Shown here piece after piece: positions 1,887-64,000 of a DNA stretch of 64,000 nt. Within the stretch, counting starts at the first letter, position 1, and each line of letters starts with the position of its first letter. This DNA is from a virus (Duplodnaviria; Caudoviricetes), in the IMG/VR virus record IMGVR_UViG_3300022661_000051; one strand, written 5' to 3'. The notes under the pieces were generated by a model that was given only the letters and a program-made list of their open reading frames with translations, did not search any database and had not been told where the DNA came from. Made by a program: the position numbers and the translations under genes.

Positions 1887-3404
1887 TTACAGCCTGATAA
1901 ACGGGTTGATACCGTTCTTGCTTCTTTCTTCCATAATACGAAATGCAGTATCTTCCAATTCGACATTAGTAAAACGCATTTCTTTTGTCGAAAGCGCATA
2001 CTTTTCAAACAGCGGAAGATTGTTTATATAGTATTTACTAGTAGTAGAACAAGAATCATCTATTAAATCTATATAGAAAGTATTAGCGCCTCTTGTTCTA
2101 CCTAAACGCTGGCGGTTCTGTGTTTCTGATTTGTAAGGCTCGGCTAATTGTACTGAACATACAACGTCAGAAATATCCAGAGCTGCTCCTGCTGATTGTG
2201 ATGTAGTAAGAATTATATTTTTACTCTTGGCAGATTCTTTATCATCGTTTATAGATGTATATATACCTACCATATTATCGTATTCTGGATAGTTGCAGAT
2301 TATCCATTCATACATATACATTACCGCATTATTAGTTGATAAGAAGATTAACTTCTTACCTCGCATTCTCGATATGATATCCATTATGACACGACATATA
2401 AGATCAAAATTTCTCTTGTATATAACCTGGTCACAATAGATTAATCTATTGAATCCGTATAATGTATTACACTTACTAATCTCTTTAGCGTCAAGACCGG
2501 ATTTATATCTAATAGCGATATATCTGGTTCTGGGATCGCTATTGGGATCGAATAGTACAATATTTGGCACGTTCTTAAAATAAGTCTGAAAGATCTCGTT
2601 TTCCCTTTCGTCAGACTTTGCCGGAGTAGCCGTTAAGTATAACGTTCTATAAACATTGGTGTGGAAGTCTATAGCCGTTATATTATCAAAATGCAGATGA
2701 GCCTCGTCAAATATCTTTATACCTATTCCTAAGTGTGTAAATAATTGACTTATATAATCCCATCCGTTATTACTAGCAAGACTAGCAATAGTACCATGAG
2801 TAATAAGATATATCTTATTACGATCGATCTCTTCTGGAGATTTAGACATTAGAATTCTAGCATGGTCCGATCCATCTATAAAACAAATGTCTCTTGGTAA
2901 TATATTTGTGTGCTCAGTGATTCTAGTTTTCCATTGATTAAGCCAATCAACCGAGCAAGTTATTATTACCGACTTTATATTAAGAGCAGACATATAAGCA
3001 ATACCCAAATATGTCTTTCCTGCTCCTGTATTTAGATTCACTGCTAACTGTGAATAGTTTTTAGTGTATCTATACTGCCCTTTGCCTAATAAGAATGATA
3101 ACGTTTCTATCTGTTTTTCATTCTTAGGTTTATACCGAACAAGCGTTCGATCATTATTATACCTAAACGGAGAATTCTTATTCTCATAATAGGCTTTAAC
3201 TCCAATAACTTTTTCAAGAAGAGATATATCCATACCTCTAGGAAGTGTAAGAGTTTTATTGGTATCGTCATATTCTATACACTTATAGTGTAAAGAATGA
3301 GTTACACCATCCCAAGTTCGAAAACAGTTTTCTATCTTAGGATAATCACCAAATGTATAATCGTTAATGATTATACAAGTTTGTTTTACTACGATTTTGT
3401 ACAT
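1887..3404 (-). CDS. superfamily 2 (DEAH, UvsW-like) helicase
   Basis: Walker A NTGAGKT, IFDEAH, LTATP, motif VI QRLGRTR; start at ATG 3404 after AGGAG. Confidence 0.9.
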   Translation of the reverse strand: MYKIVVKQTCIIINDYTFGDYPKIENCFRTWDGVTHSLHYKCIEYDDTNKTLTLPRGMDISLLEKVIGVKAYYENKNSPFRYNNDRTLVRYKPKNEKQIETLSFLLGKGQYRYTKNYSQLAVNLNTGAGKTYLGIAYMSALNIKSVIITCSVDWLNQWKTRITEHTNILPRDICFIDGSDHARILMSKSPEEIDRNKIYLITHGTIASLASNNGWDYISQLFTHLGIGIKIFDEAHLHFDNITAIDFHTNVYRTLYLTATPAKSDERENEIFQTYFKNVPNIVLFDPNSDPRTRYIAIRYKSGLDAKEISKCNTLYGFNRLIYCDQVIYKRNFDLICRVIMDIISRMRGKKLIFLSTNNAVMYMYEWIICNYPEYDNMVGIYTSINDDKESAKSKNIILTTSQSAGAALDISDVVCSVQLAEPYKSETQNRQRLGRTRGANTFYIDLIDDSCSTTSKYYINNLPLFEKYALSTKEMRFTNVELEDTAFRIMEERSKNGINPFIRL

Positions 3405-3428
3405 CACTGTTTTCTCCTTAACATAAAT

Positions 3429-3453
3429 AAAAGGGAGCACTATAGCTCCCTTT
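3429..3453 (-). terminator. hairpin between the RNAP and helicase genes
   Basis: AAGGGAGC-actata-GCTCCCTT followed by a U tract on the minus strand. Confidence 0.55.
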
Positions 3454-6997: not shown

Positions 6998-9579
6998 ATG
7001 GAAACAACTACAAACACGATTAATATCAACTCTCCGGCTATTGATATTTATAGGAATGAAATGCTCGATGCTCTCAAACTTTCATTCCCTGCAATGTATG
7101 AAAGCGATCTTATCGATGCTATAAACTACTCTATAGCTAAAAGATCAAAAGACTCAAATTGTGTACTTGATAATAACTACACAAAGAAAAGACAGGACAC
7201 TACCCTCTTCAAGGTTCTTGAATATATTATCGATAAAGAACCAATTATTACAGTGGCGGGTGTAATGTTTAAAAAACACGGCTCGGAACCAAATCCGTAT
7301 GTAGATCTCATTCAAAGCTTCTTAAAGATGAGAGGTGTATATAAGAATGAGATGTTTAAATATCCGAAAGGTTCTGATATGTTCGAAAAGTATAATCTTC
7401 TTCAATTATCAGAAAAAGTATCAGCTAACGCCATGAGATAAGTACGTACGTGGCAGCTTATAGTAATATAAGCTTAAGAATGCATTGAACTGCTGGGAAA
7501 CCCTAAAGCTTGGTCCACCACAACGTAATCCGAAAGGATAAGCGTGATGGTTTGAAAAGGACCAAGATAGTTGACTACTGTACAGTAGTCAACTAATGGG
7601 TAATCAGCAGCTAAGAATCTAAAGAAAGGAGGCGTAAAATTATTATGAATATTTTTGAAAAGGTATATACTAATCCAACTAATGGAGAACATTGAGTTGT
7701 TTAAAGAGCCGTTCTAAATACAAAAATATTTCAAGTAATTATAATTTCTAAGATTAAAGTTCAACGACTATCCCGTAAGGGAGTAGAACTCAAGCGAGTT
7801 CGAAGTGGTGCACTCCTATATTTGTTATAGGATGAAGATATAGTCTGTCCCTTTTAGAAATTTAAGGGAAGTTCATAAGAGAACTGCGTATAAGTAGCGA
7901 CTATACGTGACATACAACGATACGGTGCATCAGGAATGTGCACATCTGTATTTTATAATTTATATGTAGCTCAGAGTGTAACTATGCAGGGTCAGAGTTG
8001 TATCTCGACAGCAATCATGCTCTTTGAGTCGTTTATGGCTAATAACGTTAAGTTTGGTTCTCTTAACGAAGCTATTACATTCATTAATAATATTCGAAAA
8101 GAAAAAAGAACTTATATGGATTATGCGGTTATAGATAGAGACATTACTGTTCAGGAATGTTTCATGCAGGTCGTATCTACATTCGGGTTCTATTATATCC
8201 CAACAGAAAAGGATATGATGATTATATGGGATATACTTAATAAACTTCCTCAGCAGGATATAAATAGAATATTCTATAAGAATAATCTTTTCAACTTCGT
8301 AGACAATAGATATGTCATGAATAAAATCATTGAGGTTTTATCTACTCTTAAAACTCCATTTATGGATCCTAATGATCCTCCGGAAGAAATTAAAGACTCG
8401 CTTGGAGAGGTGTATGATCTTCTTAAAGAATGGGTTTATTATGATCAGCAGTATATGGATAGAATTGATAGAGCATATAACATGTACCGTTGCGTTTCTG
8501 TACTTACCGATACCGATAGTTGCTTTATAAGTTTTGACGGATGGTATAGATATATTCTCGACAAGATTTATAATATTCCGATGAGGATTAAAGAAATCGA
8601 AATGAATGAAGATACTGGTGAGGTATCACCCGCAGAACAGATTAGTTATGATTACGATTTCTATAAAGATGAAATCATTGAGTTAAAACAGACAATTCGT
8701 CCAAATATAATCGGACCTGGTGTTGGTTTCAGATGTTCTATTATCAATATTCTTGCATATACAATGGGAAAATTGTCCATAGATTATATGTATAAATACT
8801 CAACAAACTCTAACGCTACAACATGTGCCGATGGTTCTAAGAGAGCATCATATTATATTCTTAAGAACGAATTCCAGCTTAAAAGAGCTCTCGTTACAGA
8901 TAATAAAAAGAACTACTGTTCGTATCAGGAGCGACAGGAAGCAAGCATCATCCCTGCAGAAAAAGCTCTTGATATTAAAGGTATGCCTATCAGAAAGGTT
9001 GGAATACCAAAAACAACAAGACATGCTCTTGAAAGTATATTGTTTGATTGCATATTAAATGCAGGAGATAATATCAGTCAAGTTGAGATTGTTAAGAGAC
9101 TTGCAATATTAGAAAAGAGAATTTATAATTCGATTATGGCAGGAGATAAGGAATTCTTTAAACCTGTTAGAATTAAGTCTATGGCAGGATATGACGATCC
9201 AATGGGTCAGTTCGGAATAAAAGCATCCGTTGCATATAATGAATTAAGAGACGCCAACGCAGAACCTATTGACCTTGAACAGAGAAATAGTATATTGGTG
9301 GTTAAGACCGATATTACTGATAAGAATGTGGATATTATTAAAGACACATTCCCACATCAATACGAAAAAATGATAGCATTATTGAACGATGAAAACTTTA
9401 AGAAAGGCATTACTAAAATAGCATTACCTGAGAATATAGACGTTCCAGAATGGCTTAAACCTTTCATTAACTTTAATGAGATTATTAATGATAACTTAAA
9501 GACGTTCCCAAGCGAAGCTGTCGGTATTGATAGGCTTGATAAAGATAGTGTTAACTACACAAATATCATTAGACTCTAA
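6998..9579 (+). CDS. family B DNA polymerase subunit (split phiKZ/AR9-type), spliced: join(6998..7434,7920..9579), 698 aa
   Basis: Removing the intron restores motif B K-VSA-N-AI-YG; motif C LTDTDS; KKNY and DIKG downstream. Confidence 0.9.
7435..7919 (+). mobile_element. group I self-splicing intron without an intact homing endonuclease
   Basis: 5' exon GCCAU pairs with IGS GUGGC (7450-7454), giving U.G at the splice site; terminal G7919; core elements AACTGCTGGGAAA, AATCAGCAG, GTTCAACGACTA and AAGATATAGTCT (P7 GACUA/UAGUC); excision restores the frame. Confidence 0.92.
7645..7695 (+). pseudogene. 16-codon mini-ORF in an intron loop, probable homing-endonuclease remnant
   Basis: AAGGAGG followed by ATG-AAT-ATT...CAT-TGA (MNIFEKVYTNPTNGEH) in an AT-rich loop between the Q and R elements. 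Confidence 0.45.
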
Positions 9580-56226: not shown

Positions 56227-57318
56227 TTAATTACTACCATTGTTACCTTCAGTATAATAAATAGAATCGTGAACGGCTTCAAGATGTAAAGCGTATTTAC
56301 GAATCTCCTCCTGAGCATGTTCATCAGTTCTAAGAGCCAAGAATGAGATAAGAGAATCGAGACTAAATGTCATATAGATTCTCTTACATAATACATTAGA
56401 AGGTAAGAAGGCTCTTGCATCTTCCTTCTTAAATTTGGATTTAAGAAGCTGCGGATAAATAGACATAAGTTCTGCCGCAAGTTTATCCGGAGTCATATTA
56501 ACTTCCTTGCCGAAGATCTTGATATTGATTGTCTTGTCCTTGATAGAATCGGGTACATAGAAATCGTTACCGGTGTAGTTTACATAACGCTGAGACTCCT
56601 GTGTAATTCCGTTACGATGTCTTACAAGCTGATGAGTGGCAGTTCTTGACATATTCTTGAAGAGAACAGTAAATGGAAGCGTAGTTAATACTTCTGTAGG
56701 TGTAAATCCATATTTGAAAGCGAAATCGATCATTTCGTCCTTATATTCCTTTGAAGGGTATCCATATACTTTAATTTGTGGAGTTTCGATAAGATTCTGA
56801 GTTTCGTTTACATCTTTACAATCGTCTTCAGGACTTAAGATGACATCAACAAAACGATTCATATCGATTCTTCCGGTATGCTCAATACCACAATAGAATT
56901 CTTTTACTGTATGATCGTAAAGAAGAGACATAATATCAGTGAATATCTCGCCATCAAGATTCTCAACCTTTGCTACAAGATCAATAAATCCTCTTATAGA
57001 ACCGCCGATAAGAAGATTAAATGTATTGTCTTCATTCACAGTCATATAATGTCTCAAATACTGTGTTCCTGCGAAGATATCAGCGAGTTCAGGATACTGG
57101 CTTGTAGGTCTGTTAACAAGCATCATAGAGAGGTATCCGTGTTCGAGAACAGAACCGTGACCATGTTTTACTCTCTTAGAGATATACTCTTTCTTTTCTT
57201 CATAAGTAAGGTCTTTAGTGTTATCATAACATGCAGTACATGCTTCATAAATAATGCTAACCGCATCGTTATAATATAACATCATTGAGGATTCTTTGTT
57301 TGTGAATTCAAGTTTCAT
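56227..57318 (-). CDS. thyX: flavin-dependent thymidylate synthase ThyX (extended, partly duplicated)
   Basis: HGHGSVLEH, SRTATHQLVRHR..QESQRY, EDARAFLP, LRTDEHAQEEIR. Confidence 0.9.
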   Translation of the reverse strand: MKLEFTNKESSMMLYYNDAVSIIYEACTACYDNTKDLTYEEKKEYISKRVKHGHGSVLEHGYLSMMLVNRPTSQYPELADIFAGTQYLRHYMTVNEDNTFNLLIGGSIRGFIDLVAKVENLDGEIFTDIMSLLYDHTVKEFYCGIEHTGRIDMNRFVDVILSPEDDCKDVNETQNLIETPQIKVYGYPSKEYKDEMIDFAFKYGFTPTEVLTTLPFTVLFKNMSRTATHQLVRHRNGITQESQRYVNYTGNDFYVPDSIKDKTINIKIFGKEVNMTPDKLAAELMSIYPQLLKSKFKKEDARAFLPSNVLCKRIYMTFSLDSLISFLALRTDEHAQEEIRKYALHLEAVHDSIYYTEGNNGSN

Positions 57319-58405
57319 TTTTATTTCCTCCGTTACGTGAATTTATTAAAGATACCATATCGTTTATAACTATACTTAATGGTATTCTTTGAAAATCGTG
57401 ATTATCTATTGTCCACATAGGAACACGTATAACATTAATCTTATAGTTAATCTTATAATCTGTTTCTAAAATATAGAGAAGATTATAATACAAATTCTTA
57501 TACATATTAGAATAGGACTCTTCGGAGTCTTGTATTATCTTATAATCAATCATCTCATTCTTAGAAGAGTTTTTGATTATTTCTTCCATATAAGGATTGT
57601 TAGAATCGAGCATGACGATATTTAAATTTATAGAATCTTTGTACCCAATCATTTGCTTCAGCGATGGGTATTCCTCAAGTTGTACTGTGAATATACTGAA
57701 AGCTGACTTTACTTCATATATATTAGAATAGAATTCGCTGAACGTTGTGTTTAAATCTTTCTTAAATAAGAACAAGAATTTCTCACAAGCTTCAGACAAT
57801 GCGCCTGATTCAACATCGCAATCAATGACCCCTGTTATAATATCATGCAGATAATTATAATACTTACTATAGAAATTGAATTTTGAGTAGTTATATATAA
57901 ATGTGCTTATATATGATCTATCCAATAAATATGCAGGCAATACCGATTGATCATTTTTATAATCAGATATTATATTACAGAGATGTTTATCTTGATCCGT
58001 AAGGTTGACTCTTACCATAGCATCATAGATTTCTATTAGATGCTGAATATTGTTTGCTATCGTAGGTAGAATAGTATACATAATAGCCTGTGGTCTACTT
58101 TTCACAAGCTTATCTACAACTTCACCGTCTACATTAGTAACTGCTTCCTTAAGATGCTGTAAGAGAATTGGTATTGTACATTCTTCTATCTCTCTAGCCA
58201 TCTTTACAAGGCTATTCATTTCTGCAGTTACATCATTTGTAGGAAATTTAATTATATCTACACTATGTATATTATCTGGATTAGAAGCGATCTTATTAAT
58301 TAGAGTTGTTTTGCCAGCACCATTTAACCCTTCAAAGATATATATTCCTTTAGGCAATGGCGTTATAGGTTCTTTATCTTCTTTATTATAATGTCCTGTG
58401 TACAT
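57308..58405 (-). CDS. tmk: thymidylate kinase-like P-loop nucleotide kinase with large insertions
   Basis: IFEGLNGAGKTT, IKFP, LLDRSYIST; overlaps the thyX start. Confidence 0.7.
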   Translation of the reverse strand: MYTGHYNKEDKEPITPLPKGIYIFEGLNGAGKTTLINKIASNPDNIHSVDIIKFPTNDVTAEMNSLVKMAREIEECTIPILLQHLKEAVTNVDGEVVDKLVKSRPQAIMYTILPTIANNIQHLIEIYDAMVRVNLTDQDKHLCNIISDYKNDQSVLPAYLLDRSYISTFIYNYSKFNFYSKYYNYLHDIITGVIDCDVESGALSEACEKFLFLFKKDLNTTFSEFYSNIYEVKSAFSIFTVQLEEYPSLKQMIGYKDSINLNIVMLDSNNPYMEEIIKNSSKNEMIDYKIIQDSEESYSNMYKNLYYNLLYILETDYKINYKINVIRVPMWTIDNHDFQRIPLSIVINDMVSLINSRNGGNKNET

Positions 58406-58442: not shown

Positions 58443-58546
58443 TTACTATGGGTGAAATTTGCTCGCGCTTTGGGGTGTTTGTATTCTGTAATCTATACTA
58501 TAAATCTTATATTTGTAAAATATTAGTATTTTTTTAATATTGAATA

Positions 58547-58558
58547 AACATCTATGTA
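58547..58558 (+). promoter_or_regulatory. late-type promoter firing into the purine-rich repeat
   Basis: AACA-TCTATG-TA. Confidence 0.55.
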
Positions 58559-58706
58559 ATAGAGGAGCAGGGGAAACAGGGAAGGTATTAATAGGAACAG
58601 AGGAAAGAGGGAGCATAATAATAGGAGCAGAGGAGCAAGGGAAGATAATAATAGAGAAAAACTGGAAACAGGGAAATAGGAGCAAGGATATGGGGAGCAT
58701 TATAAT
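58557..58706 (+). repeat. degenerate purine-rich tandem repeat with ~30-bp period and 14 GGA motifs
   Basis: e.g. ataggaacagaggaaagagggagcataata / ataggagcagaggagcaagggaagataata. Confidence 0.85.
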
Positions 58707-58735
58707 AAAATTCCAATTCCAAGACAATTTCCCAT

Positions 58736-58747
58736 AACATTATAGTA
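58736..58747 (+). promoter_or_regulatory. late-type promoter with no downstream ORF
   Basis: AACA-TTATAG-TA. Confidence 0.5.
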
Positions 58748-58823
58748 AGAATAAATTTTTTCATTGTTCATAAAATTCTCTCTGGATTTTATGATTGTCT
58801 CCTTTCAGTTTTGATATATAAAG

Positions 58824-58850
58824 ATAGTCTAGGGATTGTCCCTAGACTAT
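58824..58850. terminator. hairpin / palindrome 1
   Basis: ATAGTCTAGGGA-ttg-TCCCTAGACTAT. Confidence 0.6.
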
Positions 58851-58904
58851 TCTTCTGCCAAATTATTCTATATACTTATTATTCTAATATAATAATCGAT
58901 AAAG

Positions 58905-58935
58905 AACGAGACTAGGGAATTTCCCTAGTCTCGTT
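58905..58935 (-). terminator. hairpin / palindrome 2, probable terminator of the RNAP beta gene
   Basis: AACGAGACTAGGGAA-t-TTCCCTAGTCTCGTT. Confidence 0.7.
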
Positions 58936-58939
58936 TCTA

Positions 58940-61900
58940 TTATTCCTCAACTTCCAAATCAGGATGATGAATATTATAGTCCTGTTTAATTCCCATTATA
59001 TCTTTAACTTGTCTATCTAATTCAACTAAGAACTTATAAGCTAAAGTATACTGTAATGGAGCAGTAATCATACGTTTATCAAATGATACCATTGAAACAA
59101 GACAATCGATAACTTCGTTATCTCTGTAAGATGATCTCGGTTCATTACCAGGATCGAATACTTCTTTAGCAACACCCTTTTGAGCTCCAAGAATAATAAG
59201 TTTATCTCCAATAGAGAAGTCATCTTTATACGAAACATATATTTCAATAAGAACACCTTCATCTACATTCTTCAACTTACCAGTACTGTCAAGACGATAG
59301 TCTGATACATATTCTTTAGCCTTTTCTGGATCGTACTTTTCAATAGTCTTTCTGATTCTGTTCTGAGAATTCTCATAATCCTTAACAATCTTCTGAAGAG
59401 AAGGAGAGAGTTCATCGATCTCTACTGTACGATATATCTTAATATCTTCAATAACACCAGTATTATGAGACTTGATCGGAATTCTACCAAGAGATGTTAC
59501 AGTTTCTTCATCATCTACGAGATTCTTCAGAAGAACGTTTACATCATCATCTTCAAAAGCATTCTGCATTACCATAAGAGGTTCACCCTCTTCAATCTTC
59601 TGTCCAACCTTTACCAGATTATATACGTTAGTATTCTTAGAAAGGTTAACATCAACCTTAGTAACTACATTAGACGACAGAGCATTACTCATATATCTAC
59701 TTACAGCACAAGAATCTTCGAATCCCTCATCTGTAGTAAGAATAGCGATTTTAGCAATAGTTCCCTGATTATAAGTAGCATTATCATCATAACCAATACC
59801 TGTAGTATATGACATAGGATCATAAGCAATCAAGTCTCCAGTTTTTACTGTAGAACCAAGCTTATCTGCAGGTTTAAGTTTAATAGATGTGTAGAAACCA
59901 CCGTCAGAGTTTTTATATACCTTATTATTTAGATCGACATATTCAATTGATCCATCCTTATACTTAACTACGATATGATCAGAAGTCTTCTCTACGACTT
60001 TACCATCCATTTTAGCGTTTATAGAGAAATAATCTGGAGTGAAGTTTGATAAAGCGTCGTCCATACCGTTAGTAATAAGAAGAGGATCACCTCCAGCTAC
60101 TCTCATATCATGCTTAGTACGCTGAGTGAATGACATAGCTTCACGGAACGGGTCATCATGAGTTGTCGAAAGTGGAGTAAGAGCTTCTGCAATACATGTA
60201 GTATTAACGTCATTCATAATATCCTTATTATCTGCAGTATCTTTGATATAACCACGCTTACCAGATATATTCATATTAACTGTTGTCTGACGAGTTTCAC
60301 CAACCGTTGAAGCGAAACCAGTTGACATAGCTAATATACCATTCATCGACTTGTCATAAGTTCTCTTATCCAAACTATATGAACGTTCAGAGTTCATACC
60401 AGATAATCCTTTAAATGAAACCGTATTGGCAGCTTCAGCATAACAAAGATCATTTATAGTAGACGCATCAGATGTAGTATTATCTGTAAGAACCTTATCT
60501 ACAATTGCTGACTGTTTGATAGTCATAACAGCCTTACCAGTTTTCTTCATCTTTGTATGATAATCAGCATAAGACTCTGATAAAGCTTTATATGTATAAC
60601 CAGCAATTAGCTCATTTGTTCTGAATCTGTTTCCGGTAATATCAACGTGCTTATTGAACTTAGAATCTGTAAGAAGATTAGAAGCATAGAATAATGCTGA
60701 ACAGAAATCGCTAGGAAGATTATAAGCTTCACATGTTCTTATAGTGATAGGGTCAAACATCAGGTTATAGAAGTTATCAAGACCATCAGCCTTTATTCTT
60801 CCGCCGAATATATCAAGCATTTCTGTCCACATAGATTTTGTATCTATATCTTTGATAGAATAATCTTCTGTATTACATTCTTTAAGACCATTCATAAGAA
60901 GAGATGACGAATAATCTATTTCATAATATAAGAATGCATCTTTGAACTTGATACAGTCGTATGATTCACGAGGTCTTTTTTCTCTCTTATCACGGATTTC
61001 ATATTTAATTCCTGCTTTATTGAGAGACTTGGTAAGACCTTCGCAATATGCTGCGACTACAATAACTGGAATGGTTGTATTCATGATACTAGCCTTTGAA
61101 TAAGAACATCTTGAGCTAGGCTTAACCTCATTATATATAGCTTCAAATTCAGGATCTTTGATAAGAACACCACGAAGTTTATCTGAGAAGAAACGATCAT
61201 TCTTATCCATATAGATAACATACTTTTCCGAAGAATTATAACCAACAGGAATACCTTTAGAGTAATTGATTTCTTTTTCGTATTTAGAACGGATCTCATC
61301 CTGGTCAAAATAGAATGTCGTGTCTCCGTAAGAAATCGTAGAATATTGTGAGCCGAAGTCGATATAGTCTAAAGGAAGATCGTATTTAAGAGCTCCGAAA
61401 GCATTACTACCGATCTTAATCTTAATCTTATTTCCTGTATATTTACCAAGAGCTTTTGACAACAGATCTGATACTATATTAGACTTACCAAATGTAGTAC
61501 CAAATATTCTGAAGAATATCTTGTTGTAGTTTGTTGTGATCTGGCAGACATCCTTTTCTGTTTTAATAATTGGGAGATTCATGAGCTGTCCGTTGATAGT
61601 TTTATCGTTACCTCTCAATCTCATAAATCTATTATTCTTAAACTTAGGAATATCGAATTTAAGAGTAAATCTTGTACCCTTAATATCCTCCATCTGAACA
61701 GTCCAAGTTTCAATAAGATCTTCGGATGTTGAAGTATCTTCGACCTTAACATCTCTTACAGACACAGGAATTGTTCTTGTTCCAAAGAATGCGAGTATCG
61801 CCATGATATCTTCATCGACATTATATGACTTATTAAAGTTAATGTATTGTAAGTTATCCCACTGATCTGCATTGATCGAGTTGATATTAATTTTAGTAGT

Positions 61901-64000
61901 AGGAAGAGGATCCTTATCTCCAATACTCTCGGAATTAGAAATAAGTTCTTTAACAGTCTTACCTTTAACTGTCTTTTCTCTGAATCTATCATTAAGCTGA
62001 TTGATACGAGATGTTCTTGTAGCAGATGCTTTGATTTCGCTATTTTCTTCATCAGATATATCCTGAATAATATTAGCGATGTATTCTTTTTGATCAAGAC
62101 TATCTATAGCAGACTCTACAGAATCTGAAGAATCAGCAACGTCTTTAATAGCAGCTACAACTTCTGCTTTCTTAGCATCAATATCCTGTTTGTTTTCACT
62201 CTTAGAATTATCTCCCTTAACAGGAGCCATATCTTTACTGAGTTCGTTTCTACTCTTACCTGTTAGATTATAGAGCTGAACTTTCTGTGTAGTTTCGATT
62301 CTATCAATAATATCTGTAACGATAGCGTCAGGAGTATCCTTTATTAAATCGTCAGACTCAATAGGAGAATTGTTGATTATACGGTTAATGTTCTCCATAA
62401 ATCTAGAAAGGAACTTCTTTTCGAACTTATCAAGCTCAAGTTTGAAATAACCATTAGTTCCGAAGAAAATAAACGTAAATTGTTTAATCGCTCCTATTGA
62501 AGCTAAATTGTCCTTCCTCAGCTTACGTACTAAGACCGATATAGGATTGACTGATTTCGTATAATCGAATATATCACGATTTTCCTTGTACCAATCCATA
62601 ACAGGTACGAATATTGTGTTAGAGCGGTATCCTGCCTTCTTAAAACGGTCTTGGTTCGTAACACGATTTAAAAAGTCGAGATACAAATCGATACCTCTAT
62701 CTCTTGTGTAAGCATTATTATTGAAGAAAGCTTTATTATAGTATGAAGTATCGAAGAAGAGATTCATTCCCTTATACTGAGAAATATTAAGCTTAGTATT
62801 CTTAATAACTGGACAACTTTCTTTAATAATTTGATATATATCGAGCACATCCTTCTGATTCTTCAATCTTTCAGGAAACAGCATTTTTTTGAGGATAGCA
62901 TCATGTTTAGCATCCTCTTCAAATATATCATCAAAGACTATAGCGTTAGTTGCAGTTCTTAAATATGAATTACAAAGCATAATCTCGTCCATCATACAAT
63001 ATTCATTCATAGGTGCGGATACGATATCTACATCTTCGATCGGAATTGTTAAAGTATCTTTATTCTTTGAAACAAGTCCAGAGAATGATAATTTTTTGAG
63101 TTGCTGTTTAAGAATAATCTCAAGTTTAACGGCAACTTTAGACATTATAACTTCATTAGTTCCAATACACTTAACGTCTAAGAATTTGACTTTATTATTA
63201 TACAGAAGATATCTTCTTGTATTGAGAATCATTGCAGTTATAACATCATCTTCATTTTGAAGATCTCCCATAGATTTACAGTATACATAGCACTGAAGAT
63301 TCTTGTCTCGAAGATTCTTTTCACAATATGAAAAACCAGAGAGTTCTTTATCGACATACGCCATATTCATATACTTTATATTACTCAATGAAGGATAGAA
63401 ATAGTCGTTCTCTTCTGCATAATAGAATTCACTACAACGTTTCATTTTTTCATTAATATCATTCTTATTATTAAAAGCAACCACCTCTACGTCACGATAG
63501 GTAGTGTATTCTTTTATAGCTTTATAATACTTAGAGAATCTGTTCTTCTCTCCAACTTCAAGATCGGTAATCTCAAAATCATCGAGTTTCTTAATAATAT
63601 TTTTAGCAAGAGTTTCTTCATCTTCCGGATCAACATGGTTAAACATTCGGATGGCAGCTCTTACATGTTCTTCATCATTTAATGGGAACTTTCTCTTAGA
63701 CGGAACTCCAAAGTTCTTATCAGGAATTCCTTTTCTTTTATTGGCAGATAACTTACCCTCAGTAAGACACATATTAATAGAGTCCACTATAGGATCATAG
63801 TCGTACTCCACGCCAACAACATTATTTTCTGTTGTTATAATAGTATTAATAGACTTTTCAATATAATATGACTTAAACCAGTGTCTGTTAATAACAGAAG
63901 TTGAGTTGATCATATTAATAGAAGATTCAATATTTGGTGTTAAAAGGGTAACTACGCTACCCTTATTCTTATCTTCCGACGTAGTTGGAATGATAAGCTT
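58940..64000 (-). CDS. phage multisubunit RNA polymerase beta-like subunit (probably virion RNAP) with long N-terminal extension; 5' end lies beyond the window
   Basis: HDDPFREAMSFTQ, GFEDSCAVS, IGDKLIILGAQKGV and KRM motifs; the frame stays open from 63913 to 64000 and no RBS precedes ATG 63913. Confidence 0.9.
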   Translation of the reverse strand, partial: KLIIPTTSEDKNKGSVVTLLTPNIESSINMINSTSVINRHWFKSYYIEKSINTIITTENNVVGVEYDYDPIVDSINMCLTEGKLSANKRKGIPDKNFGVPSKRKFPLNDEEHVRAAIRMFNHVDPEDEETLAKNIIKKLDDFEITDLEVGEKNRFSKYYKAIKEYTTYRDVEVVAFNNKNDINEKMKRCSEFYYAEENDYFYPSLSNIKYMNMAYVDKELSGFSYCEKNLRDKNLQCYVYCKSMGDLQNEDDVITAMILNTRRYLLYNNKVKFLDVKCIGTNEVIMSKVAVKLEIILKQQLKKLSFSGLVSKNKDTLTIPIEDVDIVSAPMNEYCMMDEIMLCNSYLRTATNAIVFDDIFEEDAKHDAILKKMLFPERLKNQKDVLDIYQIIKESCPVIKNTKLNISQYKGMNLFFDTSYYNKAFFNNNAYTRDRGIDLYLDFLNRVTNQDRFKKAGYRSNTIFVPVMDWYKENRDIFDYTKSVNPISVLVRKLRKDNLASIGAIKQFTFIFFGTNGYFKLELDKFEKKFLSRFMENINRIINNSPIESDDLIKDTPDAIVTDIIDRIETTQKVQLYNLTGKSRNELSKDMAPVKGDNSKSENKQDIDAKKAEVVAAIKDVADSSDSVESAIDSLDQKEYIANIIQDISDEENSEIKASATRTSRINQLNDRFREKTVKGKTVKELISNSESIGDKDPLPTTKININSINADQWDNLQYINFNKSYNVDEDIMAILAFFGTRTIPVSVRDVKVEDTSTSEDLIETWTVQMEDIKGTRFTLKFDIPKFKNNRFMRLRGNDKTINGQLMNLPIIKTEKDVCQITTNYNKIFFRIFGTTFGKSNIVSDLLSKALGKYTGNKIKIKIGSNAFGALKYDLPLDYIDFGSQYSTISYGDTTFYFDQDEIRSKYEKEINYSKGIPVGYNSSEKYVIYMDKNDRFFSDKLRGVLIKDPEFEAIYNEVKPSSRCSYSKASIMNTTIPVIVVAAYCEGLTKSLNKAGIKYEIRDKREKRPRESYDCIKFKDAFLYYEIDYSSSLLMNGLKECNTEDYSIKDIDTKSMWTEMLDIFGGRIKADGLDNFYNLMFDPITIRTCEAYNLPSDFCSALFYASNLLTDSKFNKHVDITGNRFRTNELIAGYTYKALSESYADYHTKMKKTGKAVMTIKQSAIVDKVLTDNTTSDASTINDLCYAEAANTVSFKGLSGMNSERSYSLDKRTYDKSMNGILAMSTGFASTVGETRQTTVNMNISGKRGYIKDTADNKDIMNDVNTTCIAEALTPLSTTHDDPFREAMSFTQRTKHDMRVAGGDPLLITNGMDDALSNFTPDYFSINAKMDGKVVEKTSDHIVVKYKDGSIEYVDLNNKVYKNSDGGFYTSIKLKPADKLGSTVKTGDLIAYDPMSYTTGIGYDDNATYNQGTIAKIAILTTDEGFEDSCAVSRYMSNALSSNVVTKVDVNLSKNTNVYNLVKVGQKIEEGEPLMVMQNAFEDDDVNVLLKNLVDDEETVTSLGRIPIKSHNTGVIEDIKIYRTVEIDELSPSLQKIVKDYENSQNRIRKTIEKYDPEKAKEYVSDYRLDSTGKLKNVDEGVLIEIYVSYKDDFSIGDKLIILGAQKGVAKEVFDPGNEPRSSYRDNEVIDCLVSMVSFDKRMITAPLQYTLAYKFLVELDRQVKDIMGIKQDYNIHHPDLEVEE

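Follow-up and report, generated by a model that had tools for sequence, protein, structure and literature searches.

Directly behind a late-type phage promoter we found a purine-rich array of five tandem units, which is probably the amplified copy of a 5′ leader module that mimics Shine-Dalgarno (SD) sequences, is carried on AR9-type late promoters and would hold 30S ribosomal subunits. The promoter and one or two units recur as the leader of other genes at three further loci of the same genome. At the array itself no real gene follows, and among strains the array is kept almost free of substitutions, with no reading frame preserved through it. The original prediction had read the site as a promoter-fed RNA sponge or an R-loop replication origin. 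Of this interpretation, the late promoter, the non-coding character and the density of SD and GGA motifs were upheld, but not the R-loop origin.

Genomic setting and late-type promoters

The window analysed here, a stretch of 64,000 nt, corresponds to positions 97112-161111, read on the minus strand, of an IMG/VR record of 230,692 bp that has direct terminal repeats and a G+C content of ~35%. Positions are those of the window unless given as genome positions. The array site is a 534-nt gap between two minus-strand genes, one encoding a TMK-like P-loop protein (57308-58405) and the other the beta subunit of a multisubunit RNA polymerase (RNAP; 58940-63913; PHROG E = 2.5e-128). Judged by RNAP beta (~30% identity), the closest isolates are jumbo phages of Listeria and Staphylococcus, and also phiR1-37; a search for related loci by the TMK-like protein found no relatives. 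Strong GGAGG SD sequences are in use before the genes of this phage. No tRNA genes were found in the whole genome.

Promoter P1 (AACATCTATGTA, 58547-58558, plus strand) fits AACA-N6-TA, with the A at 58558 as the predicted start. In AR9, AACA-N6-TA/G was found at 94 late start sites, with the last base as the start (PMC5312081). The late-type promoter first proposed at this place matches that type, and we take P1 as a presumably real late promoter with its start at 58558. It is preceded by an AT-rich region (58490-58546), located between P1 and the divergent TMK-like gene on the minus strand; this tract, too, had been noted originally and is confirmed from the sequence. Its last ~25 nt are common to the other three copies of the promoter described below, and BLAST similarity among them begins at ~58523.

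Throughout the genome the motif, usually AACAT[TC]N4TAA, lies 19-40 nt before the SD-ATG of dozens of genes, including those for a 4513-aa giant protein and for RNAP beta itself. Within the window, AACATYN4TAA occurs seven times compared with 3.1 expected, a modest excess over chance; four of these matches directly precede gene starts, P1 and a second promoter, P2, account for two, and the seventh falls within a gene. In four relatives (~67% RNAP identity), the motif is kept before the orthologues of two virion genes. P2 (AACATTATAGTA, 58736-58747, plus strand) is of the exact late type, with a predicted start at 58747, and is identical to the promoters before the genes at genome positions 73062 and 91785. 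Both P1 and P2 are invariant among strain variants.

In core consensus and implied start site the motif agrees with the AR9/PBS1-type late promoters used by the non-virion RNA polymerase, which likewise stand before late/virion genes, and the phage studied here also encodes its own multisubunit RNAP. For the same comparison, its genome carries thyX and TMK-like genes. Unlike in the AR9/PBS1 type, the motif in this phage group is extended to AACAT[CT]N4TAA, and four copies here add a conserved purine-rich initially transcribed region. A further promoter-like motif, AACATCTCTGTAA, lies inside the TMK-like gene (57975-57987, minus strand); it belongs to the rare AACATCT subtype, has no purine leader and probably either matches by chance or marks an internal promoter.

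A purine-rich array of five units behind P1

By repeat finding and alignment with MAFFT, we delimited the array to 58557-58702 on the plus strand and divided it into five tandem units of 27-32 nt (A1, 58557-58588; A2, 58589-58618; A3, 58619-58648; A4, 58649-58675; A5, 58676-58702). Inspection by eye gave the same five units, and their consensus is TAAT(AG)AGGAGCAGRGGA-NNN-AGGGA..TAA. Each unit contains three conserved purine cores (AGGAGC, RGGA and AGGGA) and a TAATAA spacer. The ~30-nt period described in the original prediction was recovered by Tandem Repeats Finder (period 30 nt, 3.1 copies, 58563-58654), and the strong purine bias of the plus strand after the promoter was also borne out: 147 nt (58559-58705) are 81% purine (G 35%, A 46%, C 7%, T 12%). 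When 140-150-nt stretches on both strands are compared, purine skew and GGA density reach the maximum of the 230,692-bp genome here. All 14 GGA counted originally are present in 58547-58735, the genome mean being 1.8 per 150 nt and the next-best site having 12.

Defining SD-like sites as duplexes with CACCUCCUUUC of ≤ −6 kcal/mol, a generic 16S tail that may differ from that of the host, we counted 10 in the array compared with a genome mean of 0.86 per 150 nt. This is the top non-coding value, and the one place in the genome that is denser is an acidic coding repeat. ATG, GTG and TTG are all absent from 58559-58689 (~132 nt). Folded alone, the array has a minimum free energy (MFE) of −16.7 kcal/mol (z = −0.78) and is essentially unpaired, in agreement with the earlier remark that its GGA motifs lie outside hairpin loops.

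Tandem repeats of ~30 nt behind a promoter, with A-rich UAAUAAUAG spacers between the units and no ORF, located in a phage, also recall type III antitoxins. The array would then be a ToxI-like mimic that neutralises a host abortive-infection endoRNase, which we consider highly improbable. Type III antitoxin repeats fold into pseudoknots, but the array units are unstructured and only 70-83% alike. A search of Rfam with E-values up to 10 gave no match on the array, to antitoxin or other families, and weak sub-threshold matches on hairpins only; no toxin ORF was found. Moreover, the module doubles as an mRNA leader, as detailed below.

Sequence constraint among strains

Look-ups of exact proteins retrieved several diverged strains as well as contigs of near-identical sequence from other samples. 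Among the samples in which the phage is present are JGI 3300018475, 3300020079 and 3300019372, SRR32918201 and SRR32918221, and ERZ27316723. For a test of constraint, the window was compared with two variants, one on an ENA contig (233 kb) and the other on a Logan contig. In both, 7-8% of the four-fold sites differ in the adjacent RNAP gene, and the rest of the spacer differs at ~5%, compared with 0-2 substitutions in the 146 nt of the array. P1, array and P2 taken together (~180 nt) have 2 and 0 substitutions in the two variants (Fisher P = 1e-4 and 1.5e-5 versus four-fold sites; 0.035 and 0.004 versus the rest of the spacer). The number of units is five in three diverged strains.

The same comparisons bear on possible reading frames. 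A 65-aa ORF (58540-58737, plus strand) runs through the array, its frame staying open because the period is a multiple of three, and it was called by gene callers on 22 contigs. Nevertheless, this repeat protein, like the minus-strand ORFs of 93 aa or 58 aa, is almost certainly not a real gene, and we rejected it. No SD precedes its TTG, which falls ahead of the start predicted for the transcript. Both variants have a 1-nt deletion in unit A4 that breaks the frame, and in two of the paralogous copies of the module (cassettes B and C) the frame contains stops. The sole database match of the 65-aa ORF was itself, and searches of Pfam and PHROG with the three ORFs overlapping the array found no family. 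Instead of an excess of synonymous changes, there is almost no substitution at all, and the two substitutions observed, both in unit 1 of one strain, would each change an amino acid and together give the spacer of cassette D.

Conservation of this frame with synonymous variation had been named in advance as the sign of a coding repeat; the broken frame and the two non-synonymous substitutions gave the opposite outcome. Few substitutions combined with a broken frame point to a conserved nucleic-acid element and not to a coding repeat. As far as can be judged from the aligned strains, the array is selected as nucleic acid, not as protein. The expectation that it would be conserved without its frame is thus borne out among strain variants, but it does not extend to relatives at ~67% identity, which have no array. 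As this comparison of strains illustrates, constraint without a conserved frame can separate RNA elements from small ORFs in metagenomic phages.

Three further copies of the promoter and leader

The promoter together with the first unit (AACATCT.T.TAATAGAGGAGCARRGGA) is present four times in the genome. Cassette B (genome 2884, minus strand) stands before the genes for a 34-aa hydrophobic peptide and a 398-aa head-tail-joining-like virion protein, cassette C (genome 202533, plus strand) before that for a 255-aa virion structural protein and cassette D (genome 47941, minus strand) before that for a 185-aa protein without a family. With one or two units each, these three form leaders of 66-99 nt, 2-4 times the usual leader length. 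In four of four cassettes UAGAGGAGC is located at +3 of the predicted transcript. Other long-leader late promoters of this genome are without such an SD-like site, which counts against the stabilising role proposed below. Leaders C and D are almost invariant among strain variants; just upstream, the sequence varies among strains at cassette C and has one substitution at D. Because the module forms the leader of late mRNAs at three other loci, its primary role would be that of a cis-acting 5′ leader.

Leader C (L003:1530-1628, corresponding to genome 202544-202642, plus strand) contains a 15-codon uORF, MGALIINSKTLERRK, with no change among six strains. The uORF ends 4-5 nt ahead of the virion gene's ATG, and its stop overlaps the SD of that gene, an arrangement that looks like termination-reinitiation coupling.

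In one strain, the spacer of unit 1 reads ATATA in place of AAACA (58575-58579), which is exactly the cassette D version. Such an exchange suggests gene conversion among the four cassettes, and the strain-level conservation of the array could be partly due to this process. The Logan short-read contigs of variant strains (L033-L035, first 178 nt) all end within P1 and unit 1. They break at a 32-nt exact repeat shared with cassette B, and members of the cassette family cause assemblies of this phage to fragment.

The use of the module as an mRNA leader elsewhere also weighs against the proposal that the array is a replication origin, be it of the R-loop type of T4 oriF/oriG or of an iteron type with direct repeats beside an AT-rich tract. 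Features in its favour are the promoter, the G-richness of the non-template strand and the five direct repeats adjoining the AT-rich tract. Purine-rich RNA forms unusually stable hybrids with pyrimidine DNA, and, as in oriF/oriG, the transcript of the promoter could stay hybridised downstream. An SF2 helicase gene is present within the window as well; the helicase meant in the original prediction is probably the ResIII/DEAD protein at 1887-3440 (minus strand), for which UvsW is only a candidate identity, and it has no bearing on the array site. The T4 origins, however, have middle-mode promoters and a downstream AT-rich unwinding element, whereas P1 is of the late class that drives virion genes, the sequence downstream of it is purine/G-rich (35% G) with short, widely spaced G runs, and the AT-rich tract lies upstream of the promoter, outside the transcribed part.

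The array site also differs from oriF/oriG in having no positional support as an origin. It is located inside a block of co-oriented genes (genome 97-108.7 kb), with no strand switch, and the whole-genome GC-skew check suggested at the outset showed no turn of the cumulative skew at genome 102.4 kb, which is a weak test for phages. The GC skew of this genome tracks gene strands only. Considering in addition that the array is absent from relatives at the same place, we regard an origin of either type as very unlikely, and the R-loop origin was not sustained.

Elements downstream of the array

In the last unit, AGGAG and a 7-nt spacer precede an ATG that opens a mini-ORF of 15 codons (MGSIIIKFQFQDNFP, 58690-58737, plus strand). 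The initial statement that no RBS-led ORF exists here must be amended for this mini-ORF, but it holds for the 65-aa ORF with its TTG. SD and ATG of the mini-ORF are kept in three strains. The encoded peptide is not kept, since a TTCCAA slippage tract just after the array carries insertions of 3 nt or 8 nt, the latter a frameshift, in variants. The uORF of cassette C, also of 15 codons, is paralogous to the mini-ORF.

Behind P2 follows a CU-rich segment, N2 (58748-58823, plus strand), with a hairpin at 58769-58793 and an anti-SD-like GUCUCCUUUC at 58797-58806. The stretch 58747-58862 folds with −30.6 kcal/mol (z = −4.3). Indels in N2 of strain variants spare the stem and the CU motif; in relatives, the alignment of the region beside the RNAP gene gave no convincing conservation of N2. 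P2 would drive a CU-rich RNA of ~110 nt that contains the hairpin and ends at the next element, T1 (predicted unit, 58736-58860). The sequence GUCUCCUUUC resembles the 16S anti-SD.

Hairpin T1 (58824-58850, either strand) is a palindrome with a 12-bp stem and the likely 3′ end of the plus-strand unit; changes among strains fall in its loop. Its paralogue T2 (58904-58936, either strand) is a palindrome directly after the RNAP beta stop. Both are perfect palindromes of the form ..CTAGGGA-N3-TCCCTAG.., and T1 or T2 could terminate transcription in both directions. P1, array, mini-ORF, P2, N2 and T1 (or T2) would together make up a gene-less RNA of ~270-380 nt that is predicted to run convergent with the RNAP gene. 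No ORF on either strand of this unit, whatever its length, had a homologue or belonged to a family.

Distribution of the array

When IMG/VR and JGI metagenome contigs were scanned for exact occurrences of the pattern (promoter and unit), no match turned up outside this phage. The array had no blastn match in isolated phages, and a DNA search of five related genomes returned chance-level matches only. Relatives at ~67% amino-acid identity keep the promoter type and have short leaders with a single SD; the array is absent from them and is restricted to this species-level group. Three relatives (L007, L008 and L010, ~7530-8530) have tRNA arrays exactly downstream of RNAP beta, which is the place of the array here, and in one of the three an HNH endonuclease ORF is located there too.

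In another relative, G001, a different purine-rich tract occupies the syntenic position with the orientation of the array (L006:8340-8610, minus strand of the locus). This tract is 76% purine over 140 nt and includes 13 GGA in 290 nt, three copies of AACCAGGAAGRAC and one strong hairpin. It is preceded by a degenerate promoter-like AAACATCTGATGG (AAATAAACATCTGATGG) and runs into a 139-aa ORF. The G001 tract may be an older or an analogous long purine leader, and the presence of such a leader at this position may predate the array. Going by the genomes searched, the array itself is a young lineage-specific invention.

This narrow distribution, the tRNA genes or another ORF at the same place in relatives, the lack of a gene downstream and the indel variation just after the array would all fit a neutral leftover, that is, an orphaned promoter-leader cassette which lost its gene, was expanded by slippage and has no function. 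Such an origin is unlikely in view of the strain comparison, in which the array and both promoters have far fewer substitutions than four-fold sites and neighbouring spacer and all five units are present in three diverged strains.

A probable leader module mimicking ribosome-binding sites

According to the explanation we favour, the phage carries the module right behind the predicted start at four late promoters of nearly identical sequence. One or two copies make up the long 5′ leader of late/virion operons at three of these loci; at the array locus, the module has been amplified to five units, which would head a late transcription unit devoid of genes. Being unstructured, the SD-like cores, of which the first is at +3, could base-pair with the 16S rRNA 3′ end and thereby retain 30S subunits at the 5′ terminus of the RNA without productive initiation. 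The bound 30S subunit would shield the transcript from 5′-end-dependent decay and raise the local supply of ribosomes. The sequences themselves show the anatomy of the unit, the paralogy of the cassettes, the non-coding character and the constraint; transcription from P1, binding of 30S subunits and the stabilising effect are predictions drawn from sequence features.

Elements of this kind were reportedly described by Agaisse & Lereclus in 1996 and Hue et al. in 1995: STAB-SD, in the cry3A mRNA of B. thuringiensis, and a polypurine stabiliser at the 5′ end of an early RNA of the Bacillus phage SP82. In papers that cite this work, such sequences are presumed to hold a 30S subunit and thereby block 5′-dependent decay (PMC7509114, PMC2358910, PMC12970973). 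Like these, the array has SD-complementary polypurine sequence in a 5′ UTR that is not used for starting a downstream gene. The known elements, however, are single sites, whereas here a ~30-nt unit with three cores begins at +3, is found at four promoters and reaches five copies without a gene. Those features of a stabiliser that can be checked on the sequence are present: the array is complementary to a generic anti-SD, 5′-proximal with respect to the predicted start, free of start codons and single-stranded. By analogy, a STAB-SD-type 5′ stabiliser would be the best-fitting known mechanism, assuming an RNase J decay and an anti-SD of the Bacillota type. The relatives at ~67% identity manage with short leaders and no array, and the module is therefore dispensable for this promoter type.

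A stabiliser needs one 5′-proximal site, and five units before no real gene are unexplained by cis-stabilisation alone. As these five units are kept ahead of no gene, there is room for a trans-acting decoy or sponge RNA that titrates 30S subunits, a CsrA-type GGA-binding regulator of the host, Hfq or the CU-rich anti-SD RNAs of the phage itself, such as N2; we judge this possible, though not probable. The 14 GGA and 10 SD-like sites are single-stranded with no real gene downstream, the five units under selection exceed what a cis-stabiliser requires, and several cores fit ACARGGA, the CsrA-type consensus. The MFE fold also pairs units 2-3 of the array with N2, and ncRNAs from intergenic regions are known in jumbo phages (PMC8545117). 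On the other hand, the module serves as a plain mRNA leader at three loci, and a 30S decoy would compete with the late mRNAs of the phage itself. No CsrA gene was found in the phage, and the Rfam search gave no match, Csr/Rsm families included.

Like CsrB, RsmY and RsmZ, the array presents many GGA on a short non-coding RNA that ends at its own, here predicted, terminator. It differs from them in that its GGA are not placed in hairpin loops, in the missing family match and in that its units come nearer to full SD sequences (AGGAG, GAGG) and double as mRNA leader. We also considered a specific pairing of the array with N2 and rejected it, as its −26.5 kcal/mol is ordinary for pyrimidine-rich windows (mean −24.0, sd 5.8).

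That the array acts as a free-standing late RNA, a trans decoy made of RBS mimics which re-programs translation late in infection, is doubtful. We know of no description of a phage-encoded translation sponge, and an action in trans, if real, would make the amplified copy a phage takeover RNA of a new kind. Returning to the leader module, it would represent a portable cassette of promoter and RBS-mimicking leader that has spread to four late promoters and been amplified at one locus, in jumbo phages with their own RNA polymerases, for which little is known about the control of late transcripts. If the module does stabilise RNA or load ribosomes, it would be a compact natural expression enhancer for Gram-positive systems.

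Additional late-type promoters without an ORF or with unusually long leaders are located at genome positions 70888 (plus strand), 20501 (minus strand) and 166362 (minus strand), which suggests that the phage makes several promoter-fed small RNAs.
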